Of a stretch of 56,298 nucleotides of DNA, positions 9,589 through 45,382 are shown one piece after another. A program made the translations under genes and the position numbers. Origin of the DNA: an uncultured Ruminococcus sp. (lineage in GTDB: Bacteria > Bacillota > Clostridia > RUG12999); contig CACZWD010000014.1 of assembly GCA_902784805.1 (NCBI GenBank), positions 1 through 56,298 of the forward strand. Direction: 5' to 3'. The notes beneath the pieces are model-generated. The model made no database searches and was not told where the DNA came from. It was given only the letters and a program-made list of their open reading frames with translations. The stretch's first letter is position 1, and each line of letters starts with the position of its first letter.

Positions 9589-11025
9589 TTACGCCAAGCT
9601 TTCCGCTTTCGTTTTATCATCACTTTTTTGCTCATTGTCATCGGCGTCATCATTATCATCATTCTCTTTACTGTACAAAGCGTATTTTTTCATTATTTCA
9701 TATACAATAGCGGCAACACACGACATACCAAAACCGCCGATAATGGCAATAAGCTTCAAAACGGAACCGCTCATATTCTCAAAATAACTTACTCCGCTTA
9801 ATTTTTTTATATGAAACGCCGGTATATACTCATTATAATCGGAAATATTTATATTTGCCTTTTTATATAATTCCTCAAGGCTGACAAGCACCGCTTCTAT
9901 TTCATCTTTTACTTCCGCTTCATATTCCTCATAATTTATATCGGGACTTTTTTCTAACTTAAATTTATCTATAATACTTTGACAATATTCCATATCAATT
10001 TTTTTGTTGTTTGCAGAAATACTGTCGTTTGCATAGCCTGTTATAAGATTATCATAAGTTGTCTGTTCGTCAACGGCATTACTGTCATCATGTTCGACGC
10101 CCTGCATAATCGAAACCGAGTCGGGATTTTCTCCGCCGTTTTCTTCATCCGGATTAAAAAGATTCAAATTCGCGTTTAAATAGGAATCCATTCTGTCCTT
10201 GGCAACCTCCGCTTTATAAGCGGAATTTGCCATATCGCGCATATTGCTTTCAAGACGCTCTCTATACCTGTCTATAAGGATTGCCTCATCTTTGGTAACC
10301 TGACCTTCAAAAATTTTTGAAAAAATTTTGGGCATTGAATATTCGTTGATTCGCTCAAAATCTTTAAGTAAATCACTAAACGTAAGTCCGGTGGTGGGTG
10401 AACGGTATCCCATACTGTCTTTTGAATAGCTTGAAAGCGCGGTTATAGTCTGTTTCAGATTATCCTCAATCTGCTCCGCCTGCTCAATGTAATCAAAATT
10501 CTTTTTATTTACATTATAATCAACCTCGTTAAGCGTTGCAAGATAAAGATAGGTTTCCGAATAGTATTTAAAATAATTTGCTACAAGGCTTGATAAAATA
10601 TCCCTTGTGGACTCAAAAGACGAATTTCCTTTATAAGTAATCATAAAGGTTTTCGGAAAAAAACTATATTCCTCACCGAGCTTTTCCTTCGCGCTTTTAA
10701 GGTTTTCCACCGTTTTTGGAGTTATTGCCGAAACAGTAATGTTCTCTCTTACGGACTCGATTTTTTTATTCTTGTAGCCCAAATCATTAAGCACATTGAG
10801 AATAACCCTGGGTGATTTTATTTCGTTTACGTCAAAGGTTTTTCCGTCAAGGGTTTTTCCCTGACTTATACAAGCGTCATCATACTGAATTATAACCTTC
10901 GAGCTGTACGTCTGGCTTCTGTCAACATATACGGTTGCCATAAAGAAAGCTGCTATTGTTACAATAACAATAAATATTTTCCATTTATATAAATATTTAA
11001 ATAAATCCCATACCGAAATACTCAT
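9589..11025 (-). CDS. Wzz/YveK-like chain-length-determinant protein (paralogue 2)
   Basis: The ORF-track start at 11121 overlaps the upstream gene by 95 nt, whereas the ATG at 11025 abuts the upstream TAG (11029-11027). Features: SISVWDLFKYLYKWKIFIVIVTIAAFF...YSSKVIIQY, a long coiled extracytoplasmic domain, a C-terminal TM helix and an acidic tail. Confidence 0.55.
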   Translation of the reverse strand: MSISVWDLFKYLYKWKIFIVIVTIAAFFMATVYVDRSQTYSSKVIIQYDDACISQGKTLDGKTFDVNEIKSPRVILNVLNDLGYKNKKIESVRENITVSAITPKTVENLKSAKEKLGEEYSFFPKTFMITYKGNSSFESTRDILSSLVANYFKYYSETYLYLATLNEVDYNVNKKNFDYIEQAEQIEDNLKQTITALSSYSKDSMGYRSPTTGLTFSDLLKDFERINEYSMPKIFSKIFEGQVTKDEAILIDRYRERLESNMRDMANSAYKAEVAKDRMDSYLNANLNLFNPDEENGGENPDSVSIMQGVEHDDSNAVDEQTTYDNLITGYANDSISANNKKIDMEYCQSIIDKFKLEKSPDINYEEYEAEVKDEIEAVLVSLEELYKKANINISDYNEYIPAFHIKKLSGVSYFENMSGSVLKLIAIIGGFGMSCVAAIVYEIMKKYALYSKENDDNDDADDNEQKSDDKTKAESLA

Positions 11026-11026
11026 A

Positions 11027-12379
11027 CTATTCACCCCGTTTCTTTTTAACAAGCTCAATTGATGAAAAGGCTTCTTCAAAAACCTGCAGCTTTTTAAGAA
11101 CAAGCTTTTCAAAAAACTCAATAAATATCATAATTGCAAAAGCAAACAAAAATCCGAGAATTATAAATTTAATGATAACATTTCCCCCGCTGCGGTCCCG
11201 CAGATAAACTTTAAAATAGTTGCTCGTTTTATGCTCTAAGTACTCGTTATCGGTTTTTAAAACCTCAGCAGAAAGGATTTCAAGGTCATTTGACAAACTG
11301 CTTATCATTTCATCCGTTATCTGTTTTTTATCCTCGCCCGTAGTCTCAAAATTTGAAAACTTTTCTTTTAAGCTTCTGTAATCTTCAAGCACATCAAGAG
11401 TTCTTGCCGCTTCTATTCCGTCATCATATGACCTTTTTGTAAGCTCGTCAATTCCTGTTGTTGTACGGCTCATATAATATGTTTGCTTTGTGTTGATAGA
11501 CGGAATAAATGCAACGGCGGCAATTCCGGGCGCATATTCACCGAGAGCGGCTTTTGAAATATCCGAAGCGTTATGCATTTTTTCATATTTTGTTTCGTTT
11601 TCCGATATCTGATAATCAAGCTCTTTAACATATTCGCTGTTACTTTTTGAAATGCCGTTCTGTACAATATACGAATAAAACTTTTCAAGGTTTATATTGC
11701 GGAAGCTTTCAAGCTTTTTTGCCGCCATACCGAGATTTACTCCATCTTCCGAATAAAAAGTATTATTCTCGTTCTGGTGCGTTTTTAAATAGCTCAACAT
11801 TACATCAATTTTATCTTTAAAAACCTGATGGATTTCCATATAATCCATATGCTCAAAATCGTAATCGTCCGCTTTATATATGAGAACATCGTTCTTTTCG
11901 GAATATTTTTCAGCGAAATATTCGGTATAAGCCTTTTCAAGACTTTCCATAAAAAGAGCCGCCTCGTTTTTTGAAAACTTACTCTTCTGAGTATAATACG
12001 CGTAAAAGGTCGTGGGCATATAAACAATATTTTCTTCATTCTGTACGGCAGCAACGATGTCGTCAAGCGGCTGTCCCGTTAATCTTGTGGTAATAAAAAC
12101 CCTTGAACGAAGAAACTCCGTATCAATATCCTTATCTTTAAGGTTTTTCTTTGCCTTTTCGATAACCTCGGGAGATTTAAGCTCCGATATTTCAAATATA
12201 CTGCCATCGGGATTAAGCCCTTTTTCCGCACCCGGATAGTTAAACTCTATAACCATACTCTTTTGCTTGCTTATTATAAGTACATCGTACATTATTCCCG
12301 CAAAACCAAACAGAACAACTACTAAAAGTATAAACACCATGTATTTCATTTTTAAAATATGTTTCAAAAAACTTATCAT
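11027..12379 (-). CDS. Wzz-like membrane protein (paralogue 1)
   Basis: 450-aa ORF with the same N-TM / long coiled domain / C-TM architecture. It shares the block DG..F...E(I/L)KSP.VI with the downstream paralogue. Confidence 0.45.
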   Translation of the reverse strand: MISFLKHILKMKYMVFILLVVVLFGFAGIMYDVLIISKQKSMVIEFNYPGAEKGLNPDGSIFEISELKSPEVIEKAKKNLKDKDIDTEFLRSRVFITTRLTGQPLDDIVAAVQNEENIVYMPTTFYAYYTQKSKFSKNEAALFMESLEKAYTEYFAEKYSEKNDVLIYKADDYDFEHMDYMEIHQVFKDKIDVMLSYLKTHQNENNTFYSEDGVNLGMAAKKLESFRNINLEKFYSYIVQNGISKSNSEYVKELDYQISENETKYEKMHNASDISKAALGEYAPGIAAVAFIPSINTKQTYYMSRTTTGIDELTKRSYDDGIEAARTLDVLEDYRSLKEKFSNFETTGEDKKQITDEMISSLSNDLEILSAEVLKTDNEYLEHKTSNYFKVYLRDRSGGNVIIKFIILGFLFAFAIMIFIEFFEKLVLKKLQVFEEAFSSIELVKKKRGE

Positions 12380-13610: not shown

Positions 13611-14432
13611 CTACTTTTCGCTCACAACAACACGCTTTATTTTATCAAAAGTAAGAAATAACGGTCTTAAATAAACCCTTATCCTTGTCATTACGGTATC
13701 CATATCCCACCGTTTAAGATATTTTGCCGTTTCGGCGGCAAAAATATAGTTGCATTTATATTTTTGCAGGATTGACGCGCCTTTGCCCGTAAGTCCCTGA
13801 CCGGACTGATAATAGTTATAAAGAATATCCGGTAAAATCGTAATTTTCTGCGCTTTGGTATAAACTTCAAGCGAAAAAAGCACGTCCTCCGCAACCTTCA
13901 TATCTTCACGAAACTCCCGCCCTTTTATAAGAGTGCTGCGATATATACCGCTGCACAGATTGTTAAGCCTTATGCCTTCTATAAAATACGGGTAAATTTT
14001 CTTTTTAAAATCCTTTTTTTCAACTACATCATAAGCGTCAAACTGATTATGCCTGCGCCTTATTCTGCCGTCCGGATAAACGAGCCTGAGTCTGAATTTA
14101 ACTATATCCGCTTCCGTTTTCTCAATCACGGAGGTGAGTACGTCTATCGCTCCCTCCGGCAAATAATCGTCCGCGTCAAGAAACATAACATAATCGCCCT
14201 GTATCATAGGGATTCCCTTGTTTCTCGCGGCGGATACTCCGCTGTTGGTATCGCACGTTTTAACTCTTATACAGTCTTTATATTTTTCAATAATTTTTGC
14301 CGTACCGTCCGTTGAGCCGTCGTTTATAACAATTATGTCAAGCTCCGCACCCTTCTGCGAAACAGCTGAGTCAAGGCATCTTTCAATAAATTTTTCACCG
14401 TTATACACCGGTATGATGATAGATATTTTCAT
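13611..14432 (-). CDS. Family-2 glycosyltransferase
   Basis: I chose the internal ATG at 14432 (GGGGGA RBS 5 nt upstream), which gives MKISIIIPVYNGEKFIERCLDS...INDGSTDGT...FLDADDYL. It overlaps the upstream gene by 32 nt. Confidence 0.8.
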   Translation of the reverse strand: MKISIIIPVYNGEKFIERCLDSAVSQKGAELDIIVINDGSTDGTAKIIEKYKDCIRVKTCDTNSGVSAARNKGIPMIQGDYVMFLDADDYLPEGAIDVLTSVIEKTEADIVKFRLRLVYPDGRIRRRHNQFDAYDVVEKKDFKKKIYPYFIEGIRLNNLCSGIYRSTLIKGREFREDMKVAEDVLFSLEVYTKAQKITILPDILYNYYQSGQGLTGKGASILQKYKCNYIFAAETAKYLKRWDMDTVMTRIRVYLRPLFLTFDKIKRVVVSEK

Positions 14433-15849
14433 CTTTATCCCCCATATGACGAAGAGTTTCTTCGCGGCGTTTTTTTTCGTTTTCTTCCGATGACATAATT
14501 TTATCATACTCCTCGTCAATGCCTTCCGCCGCCGACTTTATAAACATTATCTGAACCGTAAGAAGCATTATCTTTATATCGGTAAGAATCGAATAATTGA
14601 CAATATAAATTATATCCATTAAAATTCTGTCGGACATTCTCGTATTGTATTTGCCATAGACGTGCGCATATCCCGTAAGCCCTGCCTTAACGCAAAAACG
14701 CATATCATAATTTTTTACGGTTTCCGAAAAATAATCCGCAAAAACAGGTCTTTCCGGTCTCGGTCCGACAATTGACATATGCCCCATCAAAATATTGTAA
14801 AGCTGCGGAAGCTCATCAAGCCTTGTTGCCCTAAGCACCTTTCCGACTTTTGTAATTCTGGGGTCGTCCTCCGTGGCGAACTGCGCTCCGTTCTTTTCCG
14901 CGTCCTGCACCATTGTACGGAATTTATATATAGTAAACACTTTTTTGTGAATTGTATAACGCTCCTGTTTATAAATAACCGGCCCGTCCGAATCAAGCTT
15001 TATGGCAACCGCACATATTAAAGCTATCGGTAAAGATACGATTCCCAAAATAACGGAAATAACAATATCAAAGCCCCGCTTCACAAAGCGCTGGAGTCTG
15101 CTCATATAAACGCCCTTTTTTTCTATAACAGGCGTATCGTCAAGCTGATAAATTCTGCCGTGAAGCGTTGAAACACCGTCAAGGTCGGCAAGAATGCTTA
15201 TATCCTTTCCGAGAACAAACGCCTTATGCATTATACGATTTGAGATTTCTTCTGAAATTGCCGGAGAAATAAAAACAGAATCAAAATTTTTCAGCTTTTC
15301 TTCTATCAGAGTGTCTATCTCGGCAGAGTTGTCTTCGTCAATCATATAGTAAACAGCGTCTCGCCCTTTATCCGAAGCGTATTTAAGCTTACGTGCGAGT
15401 CTGCTTGTATTACGCATATTTTCTATAATAAGAAAGCTTCTTTTTTCGCCGAATTTTCTGATAAGAGACGCCGCAAGCGTTCTCCAACAAACAAGCAAAA
15501 CCCAAGTTAAACCAAACTCTGCAAGCCACGCGCTTACCGTAAGCAGCTCCCATTTCAAAAAAACCGAAACAAAAAACGTGCATATAAATGATGCCGTAAC
15601 GGAAAGTACCGCCGATATTCCCGCGGCAAATACCTCCTCCGTCATTGACGCGTATTGGTCATACATAATAAAGAAGAAAACAAGAAACACTACAAACGCA
15701 ATTATATGCCTGTTTTCAAACCCTGCACGCCCGAATTTATTTTCCAATATAAATTTTACAAACAATAAGCTTTGAACGGACAAAAGCATATCAACAATAA
15801 ATAAAACCGAAACAATAACCGTATTTTTTAACCCTTTAATAACAATCAC
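14401..15849 (-). CDS. Initiating polyprenyl-phosphate sugar phosphotransferase (WbaP/CpsE family)
   Basis: 482-aa ORF with N-terminal TM helices and the C-terminal bacterial sugar-transferase domain (FVKRGFDIVIS...KFRTM...DPRITKVGKVLRATRLDELPQLYNIL.GHMSIVGPRPERP). Confidence 0.85.
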   Translation of the reverse strand: MIVIKGLKNTVIVSVLFIVDMLLSVQSLLFVKFILENKFGRAGFENRHIIAFVVFLVFFFIMYDQYASMTEEVFAAGISAVLSVTASFICTFFVSVFLKWELLTVSAWLAEFGLTWVLLVCWRTLAASLIRKFGEKRSFLIIENMRNTSRLARKLKYASDKGRDAVYYMIDEDNSAEIDTLIEEKLKNFDSVFISPAISEEISNRIMHKAFVLGKDISILADLDGVSTLHGRIYQLDDTPVIEKKGVYMSRLQRFVKRGFDIVISVILGIVSLPIALICAVAIKLDSDGPVIYKQERYTIHKKVFTIYKFRTMVQDAEKNGAQFATEDDPRITKVGKVLRATRLDELPQLYNILMGHMSIVGPRPERPVFADYFSETVKNYDMRFCVKAGLTGYAHVYGKYNTRMSDRILMDIIYIVNYSILTDIKIMLLTVQIMFIKSAAEGIDEEYDKIMSSEENEKKRREETLRHMGDKDENIYHHTGV

Positions 15850-15893
15850 CCTTTTTACACTTAAATTACTTTAAAAAGAAAAGGCTGTTTTTA

Positions 15894-16433
15894 TTAATTC
15901 TTATCGCCGTATTTTTTCTTATACATCATTTGATCCGCCAAATTAAACATGTCGTGTGCCGAAACATCACTTATTTGTTCCGCATACGAATAACCTACCG
16001 ACACACCTATTCCGTGTTTTTCACACTCTTTTTCAAAATCATCAATATAAATCTGGGCTTTCTCTTCAGCCTCGCCCTTTATAAACGCCACAAACTCATC
16101 TCCACCTATTCTGAAACAATTATCCTGTACACTATTTCCAAAAACATTCATAATACACTTTGCGGCGTCAATAAGTAGCTTATCACCTGCCGAATGTCCT
16201 TCCTCATTGTTTTTGGCACGAAGATTATTAACATCAAACAAAAACATCAAAACCTTGCAGTTTTCTCTCTGAAGCTTCGCGCTGTATGTATTATAGGCAA
16301 GGCGATTACCGAGAGTGGTAAGCGCGTCTTTTTCCGCAATCAGCCTGAGCTTTTCCATAAGCTCTGTGTTTTTTGTACGCAGATTGTTATACGCATAACC
16401 CATTGAATTCATTTCCGTTAAAAATATAGGCAT
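15894..16433 (-). CDS. GGDEF-domain diguanylate cyclase fragment (output half of a split gene)
   Basis: 179-aa ORF. DALTTLGNRLAY...GHSAGDKLL...FRIGGDEFVAF shows an intact GGDEF motif. There is no RxxD I-site and no SD upstream of its ATG. Confidence 0.8.
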   Translation of the reverse strand: MPIFLTEMNSMGYAYNNLRTKNTELMEKLRLIAEKDALTTLGNRLAYNTYSAKLQRENCKVLMFLFDVNNLRAKNNEEGHSAGDKLLIDAAKCIMNVFGNSVQDNCFRIGGDEFVAFIKGEAEEKAQIYIDDFEKECEKHGIGVSVGYSYAEQISDVSAHDMFNLADQMMYKKKYGDKN

Positions 16434-16435
16434 AC

Positions 16436-17230
16436 TTATTGGCAGATCTTTTTTAATGTTTTTTGAAGCCTCAACAATTGGACTGACAACAAAAAATACT
16501 GAAACATCATCGTCATAAACACAAGTAAAAAAACCAGCACAATAATAACTGTCTGAATTCTTGAATAATTATCTACTTTTTTTGTAAGCATAAAATATTT
16601 TTTTTCCGAAACGTCCAGCGTTTTACTTAAAAATTCGTTTACTCCCGACCTTATTTTCTTTTTTGACTCCAAATATATGTCATCAAAAAGCATTTTCCTC
16701 GCTTTAAGCTTTGCCTCCTCGGGAGAAAGCGCCACATCCTCCTCCGTAAGCTCCACGTCTTTGACTTCCTTATACGGTATATCCTCCGGCGGCAACTCAT
16801 AACCGTAGACGGCAAGCTTCATGGAGTAATATTCTCTTTCCATAAGCTTATTTGATTCTTCCATCGATTTTTCAATTATATTCTGCTCTTTTTCCGAAGG
16901 CAGGATTTTTTTAAGCTCTTTAATTGCCGTGTCTCTGTGCTTTGAAACCTTTGCTTCCTCAAAATACCCGTACATATATTCCATTTTTACCGTTTCCGCA
17001 AAAAGTCTTACTTGCTCGGTCAGAATATCCGAACCAAGTGTAAGTTGGTTTGCTATATAGGTATATTTCATATGTAATTTTGAAAGCTCTATGCTCTGAT
17101 TATTATATCTGTACATCCGAACTGTGTTTACTGTCATTATAATACAAAGCAAAATTATAATTGACATAATAAAAATAATAATGCTTCTTAATTGCATTTT
17201 ATTTCCGTTTACAGAAAAATGCTCATTCAT
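16436..17230 (-). CDS. Two-TM extracytoplasmic sensor module (input half of the split diguanylate cyclase)
   Basis: 264-aa ORF arranged as TM1, an extracytoplasmic helical domain of about 190 aa, then TM2. It stops 15 aa after TM2 and 2 nt before the GGDEF ORF, which is in the -1 frame. Confidence 0.6.
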   Translation of the reverse strand: MNEHFSVNGNKMQLRSIIIFIMSIIILLCIIMTVNTVRMYRYNNQSIELSKLHMKYTYIANQLTLGSDILTEQVRLFAETVKMEYMYGYFEEAKVSKHRDTAIKELKKILPSEKEQNIIEKSMEESNKLMEREYYSMKLAVYGYELPPEDIPYKEVKDVELTEEDVALSPEEAKLKARKMLFDDIYLESKKKIRSGVNEFLSKTLDVSEKKYFMLTKKVDNYSRIQTVIIVLVFLLVFMTMMFQYFLLSVQLLRLQKTLKKICQ

Positions 17231-17275: not shown

Positions 17276-18334
17276 TCACCAAAGCAGGCTTTCCATTTTC
17301 TTTTTAACTCTTTTAAAGCTGCTTATCAAATCATCCGAAAAAGAGCCGCATTTCCCACTAACAATCATATCAAACGCTTCGTCGGGCGGAACCGATCTTT
17401 TATATATTCTTTTTGTTACAAGAGCGTCATACACATCAGCAAGCGATACAACCTGTGCCGCTATCGGAATTTCATCGCCCTTAAGCCCCATAGGATAGCC
17501 TTTGCCATCATATCTTTCATGATGATAAAGAATTATATCTCTGCATATATCGGCATACTCGTTGCCCCAGATTTCTCTTGCGCCTTCAATAAGCTCGCTG
17601 CCTTTTACGGTGTGAGCTTTCATCTGATTATATTCTTCCTTGGTAAGTCTTCCTGGTTTTAAAAGGATTTTATCGGGTATATTTATTTTGCCGATATCGT
17701 GTATGGCGCTTGCCGATACAATTTGCTTAACCTTTTTTGTGGTAAGCTTATATTTCGGGCAATTTTTCATTATATCTTCAGCAATAATTTTGGTAAAGCC
17801 CTTTACTCTGCGTATATGTTTGCCGCTTTCAAGATTACGAGATTCAACAACATTGCCTAAAAGCTCAATAATATTGCTGTCCGTTTCGCTAAGGCGCTTA
17901 TTTTTTAATTGAATTTCTTTTTTCTGTTTCGCGATGCGGGCTTCGGCTTTTCTTTTATGCTTAAAAAGCTCTATAACCGTGCGCACTCTATGCCTCACAA
18001 TGGTTTCGTTAAAAGGCATCAAAAGATAATCCGTTACACCTTTTCTAAAGCACTTTTTAAGTGCCTCAGCATCATTTCCCTTGCTTATAACAAGAACCGG
18101 AACCTTCTTTTTCAGCTCAAGCTTTCTAAGAATATCTATTAAACTTTTACCGTCAACTATCATAAGCTCAAAACATATTATAATAACCGCTAATTTTTTA
18201 CCTTTCTCTCTAATAATCTTAAGTATACTTTCATCGTCGGTTGCGGTAATGGTATTATATGAATCTTCAAGTATTCTATCAAGCATATCACAATCTTGTC
18301 TGACAGTATCCGCTATTAAAATTTCATCTTTCAT
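17276..18334 (-). CDS. HD-GYP c-di-GMP phosphodiesterase with degenerate N-terminal receiver domain
   Basis: 352-aa ORF. HDIGKINIP ... HHERYDGKGYPMGLKG are HD-GYP motifs. The N-terminal CheY-like fold has Cys in place of the phospho-Asp. Confidence 0.85.
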   Translation of the reverse strand: MKDEILIADTVRQDCDMLDRILEDSYNTITATDDESILKIIREKGKKLAVIIICFELMIVDGKSLIDILRKLELKKKVPVLVISKGNDAEALKKCFRKGVTDYLLMPFNETIVRHRVRTVIELFKHKRKAEARIAKQKKEIQLKNKRLSETDSNIIELLGNVVESRNLESGKHIRRVKGFTKIIAEDIMKNCPKYKLTTKKVKQIVSASAIHDIGKINIPDKILLKPGRLTKEEYNQMKAHTVKGSELIEGAREIWGNEYADICRDIILYHHERYDGKGYPMGLKGDEIPIAAQVVSLADVYDALVTKRIYKRSVPPDEAFDMIVSGKCGSFSDDLISSFKRVKKKMESLLW

Positions 18335-18416: not shown

Positions 18417-18445
18417 ATTATACTCTACAAAAGACTTTTTGTCAA
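18417..18445 (-). promoter_or_regulatory. Consensus sigma-A promoter upstream of the HD-GYP gene
   Basis: Minus strand reads TTGACA (18445-18440), a 17-nt spacer, then TATAAT (18422-18417). Confidence 0.65.
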
Positions 18446-40514: not shown

Positions 40515-41222
40515 TCAGACAATATCTTTTCCATTCCCCGTTTCGGTCATTTTAACAACCTTATCGTGGATTTCCTCCATACGTTTGTCAAGCCCCGCGC
40601 CTATCTCGGCGCAAAGAAGAAGCTCGCTGTTTATTTCATCGGTTATTGTCACGTTTTTCTTATATCTTATTTTATGTTCAAGGCTTGCCCACCAATCCAT
40701 AGAAATTGTCCGGAATTGGACTTCCACTTTCATAAGCTTTTTCTTATCGTGAAGAAAAATGGGTGTTTCCACAATAAGATGCAAACTTCGATAACCGTTA
40801 GGTTTTGGAGTGTTTATGTAATCCTTTTTTTCTATAACGGTAATATCGTCCTGCCCCGCAAGAGCGTCGGCAAGCATAAAAATATCCGAAGGAAAACCAC
40901 AAACAACACGTATGCCGGCAATGTCATAAATGTTTTTTTCAATATTTTCAACGGTTGGCTCAATGTCTCTGCGGTGAAGCTTATTCATAATGCTTTCGGG
41001 TGTTTTAAGCCTTGTTTTAATCGCCTCAATAGGATTTCTGTCATATTGAAGCGAAAACTCCTCGTTAAGCACATTAAACTTTGTGGAAACCTCAAGCATT
41101 GCGCATCGATAATATGCCATAAGCTCCTTAAACGGAAGCGTTTGTTCTTCTATAAACTCGGCAAAATGCTCATAAAGATTTTTTTCAAGCGCGTTTTTTA
41201 TTTCTTCATTAAAAATCTGCAT
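40515..41222 (-). CDS. relQ: Small alarmone synthetase (RelQ/RelP-type GTP pyrophosphokinase)
   Basis: 235 aa. YRCAMLEVSTKF...IKTRLKTPESIMNKL...DIAGIRVVC...KPNGYRSLHLIV...VEVQFRTISMDWWASLEHKIRYK. Confidence 0.9.
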   Translation of the reverse strand: MQIFNEEIKNALEKNLYEHFAEFIEEQTLPFKELMAYYRCAMLEVSTKFNVLNEEFSLQYDRNPIEAIKTRLKTPESIMNKLHRRDIEPTVENIEKNIYDIAGIRVVCGFPSDIFMLADALAGQDDITVIEKKDYINTPKPNGYRSLHLIVETPIFLHDKKKLMKVEVQFRTISMDWWASLEHKIRYKKNVTITDEINSELLLCAEIGAGLDKRMEEIHDKVVKMTETGNGKDIV

Positions 41223-45307: not shown

Positions 45308-45382
45308 TGGAGCGGAAGACGAGATTCGAACTCGCGACGTTCACCTTGGCAAGGTGACGCTCTACCACTGAGCCACTCCCGC
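45308..45382 (-). tRNA. tRNA-Gly (anticodon GCC), CCA encoded
   Basis: Hand-folded cloverleaf: GCGGGAG / GCTC-AGTGGTA-GAGC / TCACC-TTGCCAA-GGTGA / ACGTC / GCGAG-TTCGAAT-CTCGT / CTTCCGC-T-CCA. Total 75 nt. Confidence 0.95.

Follow-up and report, generated by a model that had tools for sequence, protein, structure and literature searches.

The 56,298-nucleotide (nt) stretch of DNA from an uncultured Ruminococcus sp. that was analyzed here, hereafter the window, carries a gene for a predicted transmembrane (TM) sensor diguanylate cyclase that is divided into two adjacent open reading frames (ORFs), and the original prediction had this gene split exactly at an A_AAA_AAG slippery heptamer of the dnaX type. 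Protein and DNA homology place the switch of frame elsewhere, at a T6 run located 37-43 nt upstream of the heptamer, and the frame break is thus best described, from the alignments, as a one-nt homopolymer frameshift at this T6 run and not at A_AAA_AAG. With moderate confidence, we favor a genuine and very recent slipped-strand deletion in an ancestral T7 run, which would have left a null or "OFF" allele, over any form of programmed recoding.

Organization of the split gene

All coordinates of the cyclase gene refer to the minus strand of the window. The sensor ORF (17230..16436), whose ATG is preceded by AGGAGG, a strong Shine-Dalgarno (SD) sequence, encodes 264 amino acids (aa) with two TM segments and ends at a TAA codon (16438-16436). 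Its long hydrophobic stretches, at residues ~15-35 and ~223-246, flank a domain of ~190 aa. The GGDEF ORF (16433..15894, 179 aa) begins 2 nt past this stop, at the ATG 16433-16431, and lies one frame apart, in the -1 frame; inspection of the sequence upstream of this ATG (CATTAAAAAAGATCTGCCAATAAGT) revealed no SD sequence. The minus-strand sequence of the junction is ACA TTA AAA AAG ATC TGC CAA TAA GT ATG CCT. The coordinates of both ORFs, the junction sequence, the position of the heptamer and the missing SD sequence are all as originally read from the DNA. Likewise, the proposal that the two ORFs, which differ by one nt in frame, represent halves of a single TM-sensor-GGDEF protein of ~445 aa agrees with the fused homologues described below.

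Upstream of its ATG, the GGDEF frame continues without a stop through 44 codons, back to 16568, and the overlap open in both frames spans 133 nt (16568..16436). A one-nt event anywhere in these 133 nt would account for the split just as well. The overlap contains four homopolymers, namely T7 (16533-16527), T6 (16496-16491) and two A6 runs (16464-16459 and 16454-16449), and it ends in ...VFFVVSPIVEASKNIKKDLPISMPIF in the GGDEF frame and in ...FQYFLLSVQLLRLQKTLKKICQ followed by the stop in the sensor frame. The parts of the gene, as interpreted in the following sections, are listed here, with L001 and L002 designating two orthologue genes.

16493..17230, minus strand: native N-terminal part, residues 1-246, with TM1, the sensor domain of ~190 aa and TM2 ending in ...MTMMFQYF
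16491..16496, minus strand: T6 homopolymer, where the frame is broken and where the gene shows its sole internal gap when aligned as DNA with L001 and L002
16436..16492, minus strand: out-of-frame tail of the 264-aa ORF, LLSVQLLRLQKTLKKICQ plus TAA, whose counterpart is absent from the aligned homologues
16448..16454, minus strand: A_AAA_AAG heptamer, in the 0 frame of the sensor ORF; in the conserved frame it reads Lys-Lys-Asp, AAA AAA G(AT)
15894..16490, minus strand: native C-terminal part in the -1 frame, with the juxtamembrane segment VVSPIVEASKNIKKDLPISMPIFLTEMN, a stalk helix, the GGDEF domain with its RIGGDEF motif and the stop codon

Location of the frame break

With the conceptually joined protein as query, 1209 homologues were retrieved, the best 120 of which are all single proteins of 391-520 aa except for the window's own 264-aa ORF. 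The closest among those listed have lengths of 445 and 446 aa and identities of 73% and 72%, respectively. When the 29 closest homologues are aligned over the junction, they match the sensor frame up to ...MTMMFQYF and the GGDEF frame thereafter (FVVSPIVEASKNIKKDLPISMP). Past FQYF, the consensus of the aligned homologues follows the GGDEF frame as F(V/I)VxPI(V/I)xASKNIKKxxPIxMP, as exemplified by the junctions of P0001 (FQYFFVIRPIVKASKNIKKDMPISMPVFLAEM), P0002 (FKFFYVVNPIIEASKNIKNGLPINMPVFLTEM) and P0003 (FLYFFVVHPIVEASKKIKNNLPIKMPAFLSEM). The out-of-frame tail (LLSVQLLRLQKTLKK) has no match in any of the 29 proteins, and the 12 residues that differ between the T run and the heptamer match the homologues in the -1 frame only.

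The DNA tells the same place. The gene of the window shares ~80% nt identity with L001 and L002, and a single T is the sole internal indel in the comparison: the window reads CAGTATTTTT-TGTTGTC, L001 CAGTATTTTTTTGTTATC and L002 AAGTTTTTTTATGTTGTT. Where the window has T6 (16496-16491), the orthologues have T7, in TAT TTT TTT GTT (Tyr-Phe-Phe-Val). Six orthologue loci code the site as TAT/TAC TTT TTT GTN (Y-F-F-V or F-F-Y-V), with tracts of T7 in L001, L083 and, at a shifted position, L002, and of T6 in L084-L086, all of them in frame. Taken together, the frame switch seen with the homologues and the single-T indel show that an ancestral T7 run has been shortened by one T at 16496-16491. The C-terminal half of the gene is the more divergent one, and recombination with a junction at this run was also considered as the cause of the indel; it was rejected, the shift in similarity being gradual over ~16400-16300 and not located at 16496.

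According to this explanation, one nt would have been deleted from the T7 run at the cytoplasmic end of TM2, changing TAT TTT TTT GTT to TAT TTT TT- GTT. As the sequence stands, translation departs from the native frame at 16496-16491, adds 18 nonsense residues and stops at the TAA 16438-16436. If T6 is real, the product is a 264-aa membrane stub, composed of 246 native and 18 nonsense residues and devoid of an output domain. The stalk and the GGDEF domain would be left downstream in the -1 frame, to be made by inefficient reinitiation at most. Such an allele could revert from T6 to T7.

Origin of the apparent recoding signal

In its true frame, the junction reads AAC ATT AAA AAA GAT CTG CCA ATA AGT ATG CCT, that is N-I-K-K-D-L-P-I-S-M-P. 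This is a conserved juxtamembrane motif, in which the protein alignment (A1) shows no variation at I259 and P268 and hardly any at I265 and M267. The heptamer, the TAA and the ATG are all present because the conserved K-K-D-L-P-I-S-M codons are being read one base out of register. Indeed, the TAA 16438-16436 corresponds to the CCA ATA AGT codons (Pro-Ile-Ser) off register, and the ATG 16433-16431 to the Met that the fused homologues conserve internally, within PIxMP; this ATG did not evolve as a start codon.

These observations bear directly on the first explanation originally offered, programmed -1 frameshifting, by which slippage on A_AAA_AAG would set the ratio of stub to full-length cyclase. 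A programmed FRAMESHIFTING was tested by the homology switch point, downstream folding compared with shuffled sequences, the search for an upstream SD-like element and conservation in orthologues. It is true that the heptamer lies in the 0 frame of the 264-aa ORF, that the -1 frame is open downstream to 15894 and that a -1 shift joins the two ORFs, that GAGG is found 14 nt upstream, and that A_AAA_AAG, when stimulated, ranks with the most shift-prone heptamers of Escherichia coli (PMC4066793). However, the homology changes frame 37-43 nt before the heptamer is reached, and the GAGG belongs to conserved Glu-Ala codons (GTT GAG GCT) as the heptamer belongs to conserved Lys-Lys codons. L001 carries identical ATTAAAAAAGAT and CCAATAAGCATGCC, its AAAAAAG being translated in frame within I-K-K-D, whereas AAAAAT/AAAAAC takes the place of the heptamer in L002 and L083. 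The orthologue alignment that had been suggested as a check thus gave fused relatives throughout (best 120 of 1209 homologues; 80 loci), with the heptamer kept in L001 but in frame. A shift at the heptamer, for which the trans-frame junction ...LQKTLKK-DLPIS... (LQKTLKKDLPISMPIF; TLKKDLPISMPIF) had been put forward, would yield a 445-aa protein with 12 scrambled juxtamembrane residues at conserved positions, replacing the invariant P251 and I259 and the near-invariant A255.

No stimulatory structure follows the A heptamer: the downstream 68 nt fold at -7.5 kcal/mol (z = +0.47), and 133 of 200 shuffled sequences fold as well, which agrees with the earlier remark that no obvious hairpin is seen there. 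In E. coli, unstimulated heptamers reach only 2-10 times a background of ~0.055% (PMC4066793). The motif is also common, with 17 in-frame copies of A_AAA_AAG in the 50.7 kb of coding sequence of the window (39.5% GC); in-frame X_XXY_YYZ motifs with Y = A or T number 171, or about one per 300 nt of coding sequence. A second in-frame A_AAA_AAG occurs within the sensor ORF itself, at 16664-16658 on the minus strand (TCA AAA AAG AAA).

Finally, a split gene was found at none of 80 species-representative genomic loci (uncultured rumen/gut Clostridia), 75 of which contain one continuous match of at least 380 aa, the other five lying inside open frames of 458-484 aa. Programmed frameshifting, proposed at the wrong site, lacking a downstream structure and found split in no relative, is effectively refuted by the orthologue alignment, and we assign it a virtually nil probability. 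The second explanation originally offered, phase variation of the A6 tract, is not supported: the break is not at A6, and a one-T deletion in T7 is found instead.

The lesion itself leaves a shift-prone sequence of its own, the T6 run and G16490 forming an in-frame T_TTT_TTG heptamer (16496-16490) in X_XXY_YYZ phase exactly where the frame is broken. A real T6 might hence be a "savior indel", partly offset by -1 slippage on T_TTT_TTG or by transcriptional slippage, with a low amount of near-native enzyme (...FQYF-L/F-VVSPIV...) as the outcome. A -1 slip there would bring translation back into the native frame at the cost of a single Phe-to-Leu change at most, the concept has been documented in other genes (PMC5009743), and 61% of the E. 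coli heptamers exceed the background even without stimulators (PMC4066793). The efficiency to be expected from the E. coli measurements is, however, well below 1% (PMC4066793). Nothing SD-like was seen upstream of the T heptamer in GTGTTTATGACGATGATGTTTCAGT, no structure follows it (70 nt folding at -3.8 kcal/mol, z = +1.55, worse than shuffled sequences), the shifted T6 state is conserved in no relative and TTTTTTG occurs in frame 16 times in the coding sequence of the window. Appreciable slippage of RNA polymerase is known from runs of ~9 nt or more, and T6 is shorter. Such a rescue is, in our opinion, very unlikely.

It might also be envisaged that the split is functional, with the stub and a free 179-aa stalk-GGDEF protein both produced through termination-reinitiation at ATG 16433 and the cyclase thereby uncoupled from its sensor. 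The 2-nt spacing from stop to start is compatible with translational coupling, and the GGDEF domain and its RIGGDEF motif are intact, but the ATG is devoid of an SD sequence and is the conserved internal Met of PIxMP. Moreover, the two-gene arrangement occurs in no homologue (best 120 of 1209; 80 loci), and the 179-aa product is not among the called proteins of a 15-billion-sequence collection, which makes a functional split exceedingly unlikely.

Selection, age and reality of the lesion

Apart from the missing T, the gene is in excellent condition. Downstream of the break, it has kept all 45 residues that do not vary among 20 homologues and all 59 positions conserved at 90% or above. Upstream of it, 3 of 55 conserved positions deviate, intact controls deviating at 1-5 of ~97. 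For the downstream half, dN/dS (ratio of nonsynonymous to synonymous substitution rates) amounts to 0.170 against L001 and 0.143 against L002, compared with 0.154 between the intact orthologues, and a three-point estimate from pairwise distances gives ~0.155 for the branch of the window. The DNA alignment with L001 and L002 contains no further stop or indel in the gene. From the conserved residues and the normal dN/dS, it follows that the cyclase half has probably not been untranslated for any appreciable evolutionary time. Three origins are compatible with the intact remainder: a deletion that is real but very recent, a tract whose length varies reversibly, and an error in the consensus.

The last of these deserves attention. 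If one T is missing through a sequencing or assembly error in the consensus of a metagenome-derived contig, the organism would carry an unbroken gene for a 445-aa cyclase. In favor of this, the break falls within a homopolymer of a gene that is otherwise flawless (59 of 59 positions, normal dN/dS), the relatives are intact (best 120 of 1209 homologues; 80 loci), and these relatives stem from metagenome assemblies and metagenome-assembled genomes, as does probably the window. On the other hand, no other broken gene was found among the ~48 other genes of the window (no other frameshift among ~49), despite 97 A/T runs of at least 7 nt (275 of at least 6 nt) and 37 T7 runs elsewhere in the window, which speaks against an assembly with widespread homopolymer errors. 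A T7 run is also short for an indel error of short-read sequencing. We consider a consensus error possible, albeit with less than even probability, and lean toward a real mutation rather than an artifact. The third explanation originally offered, a recent pseudogene or a homopolymer mis-call, is therefore the one that stays alive, its site being moved from the A6 tract to the T run.

In the course of this survey, the adjacent ORF pairs 29104/29528, 48388/49407, 42398/44424, 21353/22198 and 9589/11027 were inspected as further candidates and set aside as separate complete genes or for want of evidence of splitting. No second copy from the same species was retrieved by an exact-protein look-up of the 264-aa ORF, a scan of genome representatives or a scan of Joint Genome Institute (JGI) metagenomes; a cluster look-up of the 264-aa ORF returned the window's own protein only, as one NCBI and one ENA record that are most likely mirrored.

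Several points weigh against a genuine and reversible deletion. A real deletion and a homopolymer consensus or sequencing error fit the contig sequence alike, and the total absence of secondary decay is equally expected of an artifact. In addition, compared with classical contingency loci a tract of T6 or T7 is short, and the conserved Phe-Phe codons account for it; indeed, it is not kept beyond coding need, consisting of the TTT TTT of Phe-Phe after TAT/TAC. As for reversible switching, we infer it from the class of mutation, not from observation. In a more ambitious scenario, which we hold to be improbable, T6 would be neither a dead gene nor an error but the reversible OFF phase of a poly-T switch in the only cyclase of an HD-GYP/cyclase/polysaccharide operon; slipped-strand changes between T6 and T7 would toggle exopolysaccharide dependent on cyclic di-GMP (c-di-GMP) in subpopulations, and T_TTT_TTG could provide a trickle of near-native enzyme in the OFF state.

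The region also exhibits a mosaic similarity to its relatives over 13611-17230 (minus strand). Identity to L002 reaches 99% over ~15841-15541, the 5' end of the downstream sugar-transferase gene. In the GGDEF core (16231-15931), the window is 67-68% identical to L001/L002, which share 81-84% with each other. Together with a dN/dS of ~0.15, this pattern is more suggestive of recombination among related lineages than of decay.

A predicted cyclase with an uncurated sensor domain

The gene product is, by domain content, a GGDEF-domain diguanylate cyclase with predicted activity. The GGDEF domain is recognized by Pfam PF00990 (E = 1.9e-17, 64 bits against a cutoff of 23.8) and by TIGR00254 (53.6 bits against a cutoff of 37.4), and the GGDEF profile matches 48 solved GGDEF structures. 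The RIGGDEF motif is intact, and its residues G376, G377, D378, E379 and F380 are invariant in the alignment. By direct reading, the RxxD motif of the I-site is absent, SVQD being found instead. No HAMP domain was found with Pfam.

The sensor is a different matter. Residues 1-250 gave no significant match in Pfam or NCBIfam, and the sensor domain is likewise without a sequence-family match in the PDB. Its extracytoplasmic part (residues ~36-222) is well conserved, with many invariant residues, for instance in the motifs LGSDILTEQVRLFAET and REYYSMKL, and can be found in over 1200 proteins from Clostridia of the rumen and gut. We interpret it as an uncharacterized family of putative ligand-binding domains. 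The two-TM sensor GGDEF family is new to curation yet abundant and, in the collections searched, it is confined to uncultured gut/rumen Clostridia.

Of note, residue 81 (16988-16990, minus strand), an invariant Gly in the 20 closest homologues, is replaced by Val in the window, a substitution (G81V) that could affect sensing. Two more deviations in the sensor, D58Y and I146L, concern positions conserved at 90% or above, and the total is within the range of the intact controls.

Genomic neighborhood

The original prediction had placed the cyclase gene immediately upstream of a polysaccharide locus, and this holds, the next downstream gene being a priming sugar transferase. The neighboring features are as follows.

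17276..18334, minus strand: response-regulator receiver plus HD-GYP-type HD gene, putative c-di-GMP phosphodiesterase (Pfam Response_reg, HD_5, HD)
14401..15849, minus strand: priming sugar transferase Bac_transf (Pfam), 482 aa, first gene of the polysaccharide locus, syntenic in the orthologue loci
18417..18445, minus strand: sigma-70-like promoter match TTGACA-17-TATAAT (12/12), ~80 nt upstream of the HD-GYP gene, a candidate promoter of the operon by consensus only

The HD-GYP neighbor is also present at the orthologue locus L083, and, as judged from the syntenic loci L002 and L084, GT2 and Wzy-type (Wzy_C) genes come after Bac_transf. A search for terminator-like sites on the minus strand yielded none between the HD-GYP, cyclase and sugar-transferase genes, for which a single operon is plausible. 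An Rfam scan revealed no c-di-GMP riboswitch in the 56-kb window, so that the link between the cyclase and the polysaccharide locus is provided by conserved gene order only. The sole Rfam/ARAGORN match in the window is a tRNA-Gly(GCC) at 45308-45382 (minus strand).

Further genes of the window may be mentioned. In the polysaccharide locus, the ORFs 9589-11121 and 11027-12379 (minus strand; 510 and 450 aa) have no Pfam match, and L002 has unannotated ORFs of similar size at the position matching 9589-12379. At 40515-41222 (minus strand), a 235-aa ORF whose sole domain is a RelA_SpoT synthetase domain resembles a small alarmone synthetase gene; on the other strand, an ORF of 226 aa overlaps it.

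Implications

If T6 is real, the synthesis of c-di-GMP by this cyclase under the control of its sensor should be lost and an altered c-di-GMP control of the adjoining polysaccharide locus is predicted, the whole amounting to an ordinary strain-level loss-of-function event. With regard to annotation, both ORFs should be merged as one frameshifted (pseudo)gene with its lesion at 16491-16496. Whether a homopolymer frameshift or an error in the consensus, the lesion is of an ordinary kind and affects a gene of a common type, and the main value of the present analysis lies in the correction itself: an apparent recoding signal arises here from Lys-rich codons that are read out of register after an upstream frameshift. 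Such look-alikes are easily met in AT-rich genomes, with in-frame X_XXY_YYZ motifs recurring about every 300 nt.

Comparison with known systems

Poly(A/T) tracts in genes of Firmicutes mutate at ~1000 times the rate of point mutations, as exemplified by inlA of Listeria (PMC2831843). The poly(A) tract of inlA in Listeria monocytogenes (Orsi et al. 2010, PMC2831843) is akin to the present case in that the loss of one base in a short A/T run truncates an otherwise intact gene, and in that the lost base could in principle be regained. It differs by the location of the tract at the 5' end, by the observation of both ON and OFF alleles and by a measured switching rate (PMC2831843), whereas the tract of the window cyclase lies in mid-gene (codon 245-247 of ~445) and a single allele is known, from the contig sequence alone. 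In common with phase-variable loci, the cyclase gene has a one-unit indel inside a mononucleotide tract and is otherwise intact and under purifying selection; it is at most a candidate member of this class, and a literature search for homopolymer phase variation of diguanylate cyclase genes gave no direct precedent among the papers retrieved.

With dnaX of E. coli, the window gene shares the identical 0-frame A_AAA_AAG and the open -1 frame, and a GAGG lies 14 nt upstream of its heptamer. In contrast to dnaX, it has no downstream hairpin, its homology changes frame elsewhere and the arrangement is not conserved in orthologues. The anatomy of dnaX comprises an SD-like element and a hairpin, and its shift ends in early termination, giving the gamma subunit, and not in the fusion of an output domain. 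Another relevant system is the G7 run of the herpesvirus thymidine kinase (Atkins et al. 2016, PMC5009743), in which a homopolymer indel also leaves a shift-prone run; for the window cyclase, a full-length product is conceivable in trace, with no sign of its production or of selection for it.

At the protein level, the closest known type is that of YfiN/TpbB/DgcN. DgcN/YfiN is the best NCBIfam match of the window protein, through the linker and GGDEF domain only and with 75 bits against an equivalog cutoff of 325. The window cyclase departs from this type by a sensor that matches no curated family and, as noted above, by having neither a HAMP domain (Pfam) nor an RxxD I-site. Both have the same architecture, in which a TM segment, an extracytoplasmic domain, a second TM segment, a juxtamembrane linker and a GGDEF domain follow each other in the same order.

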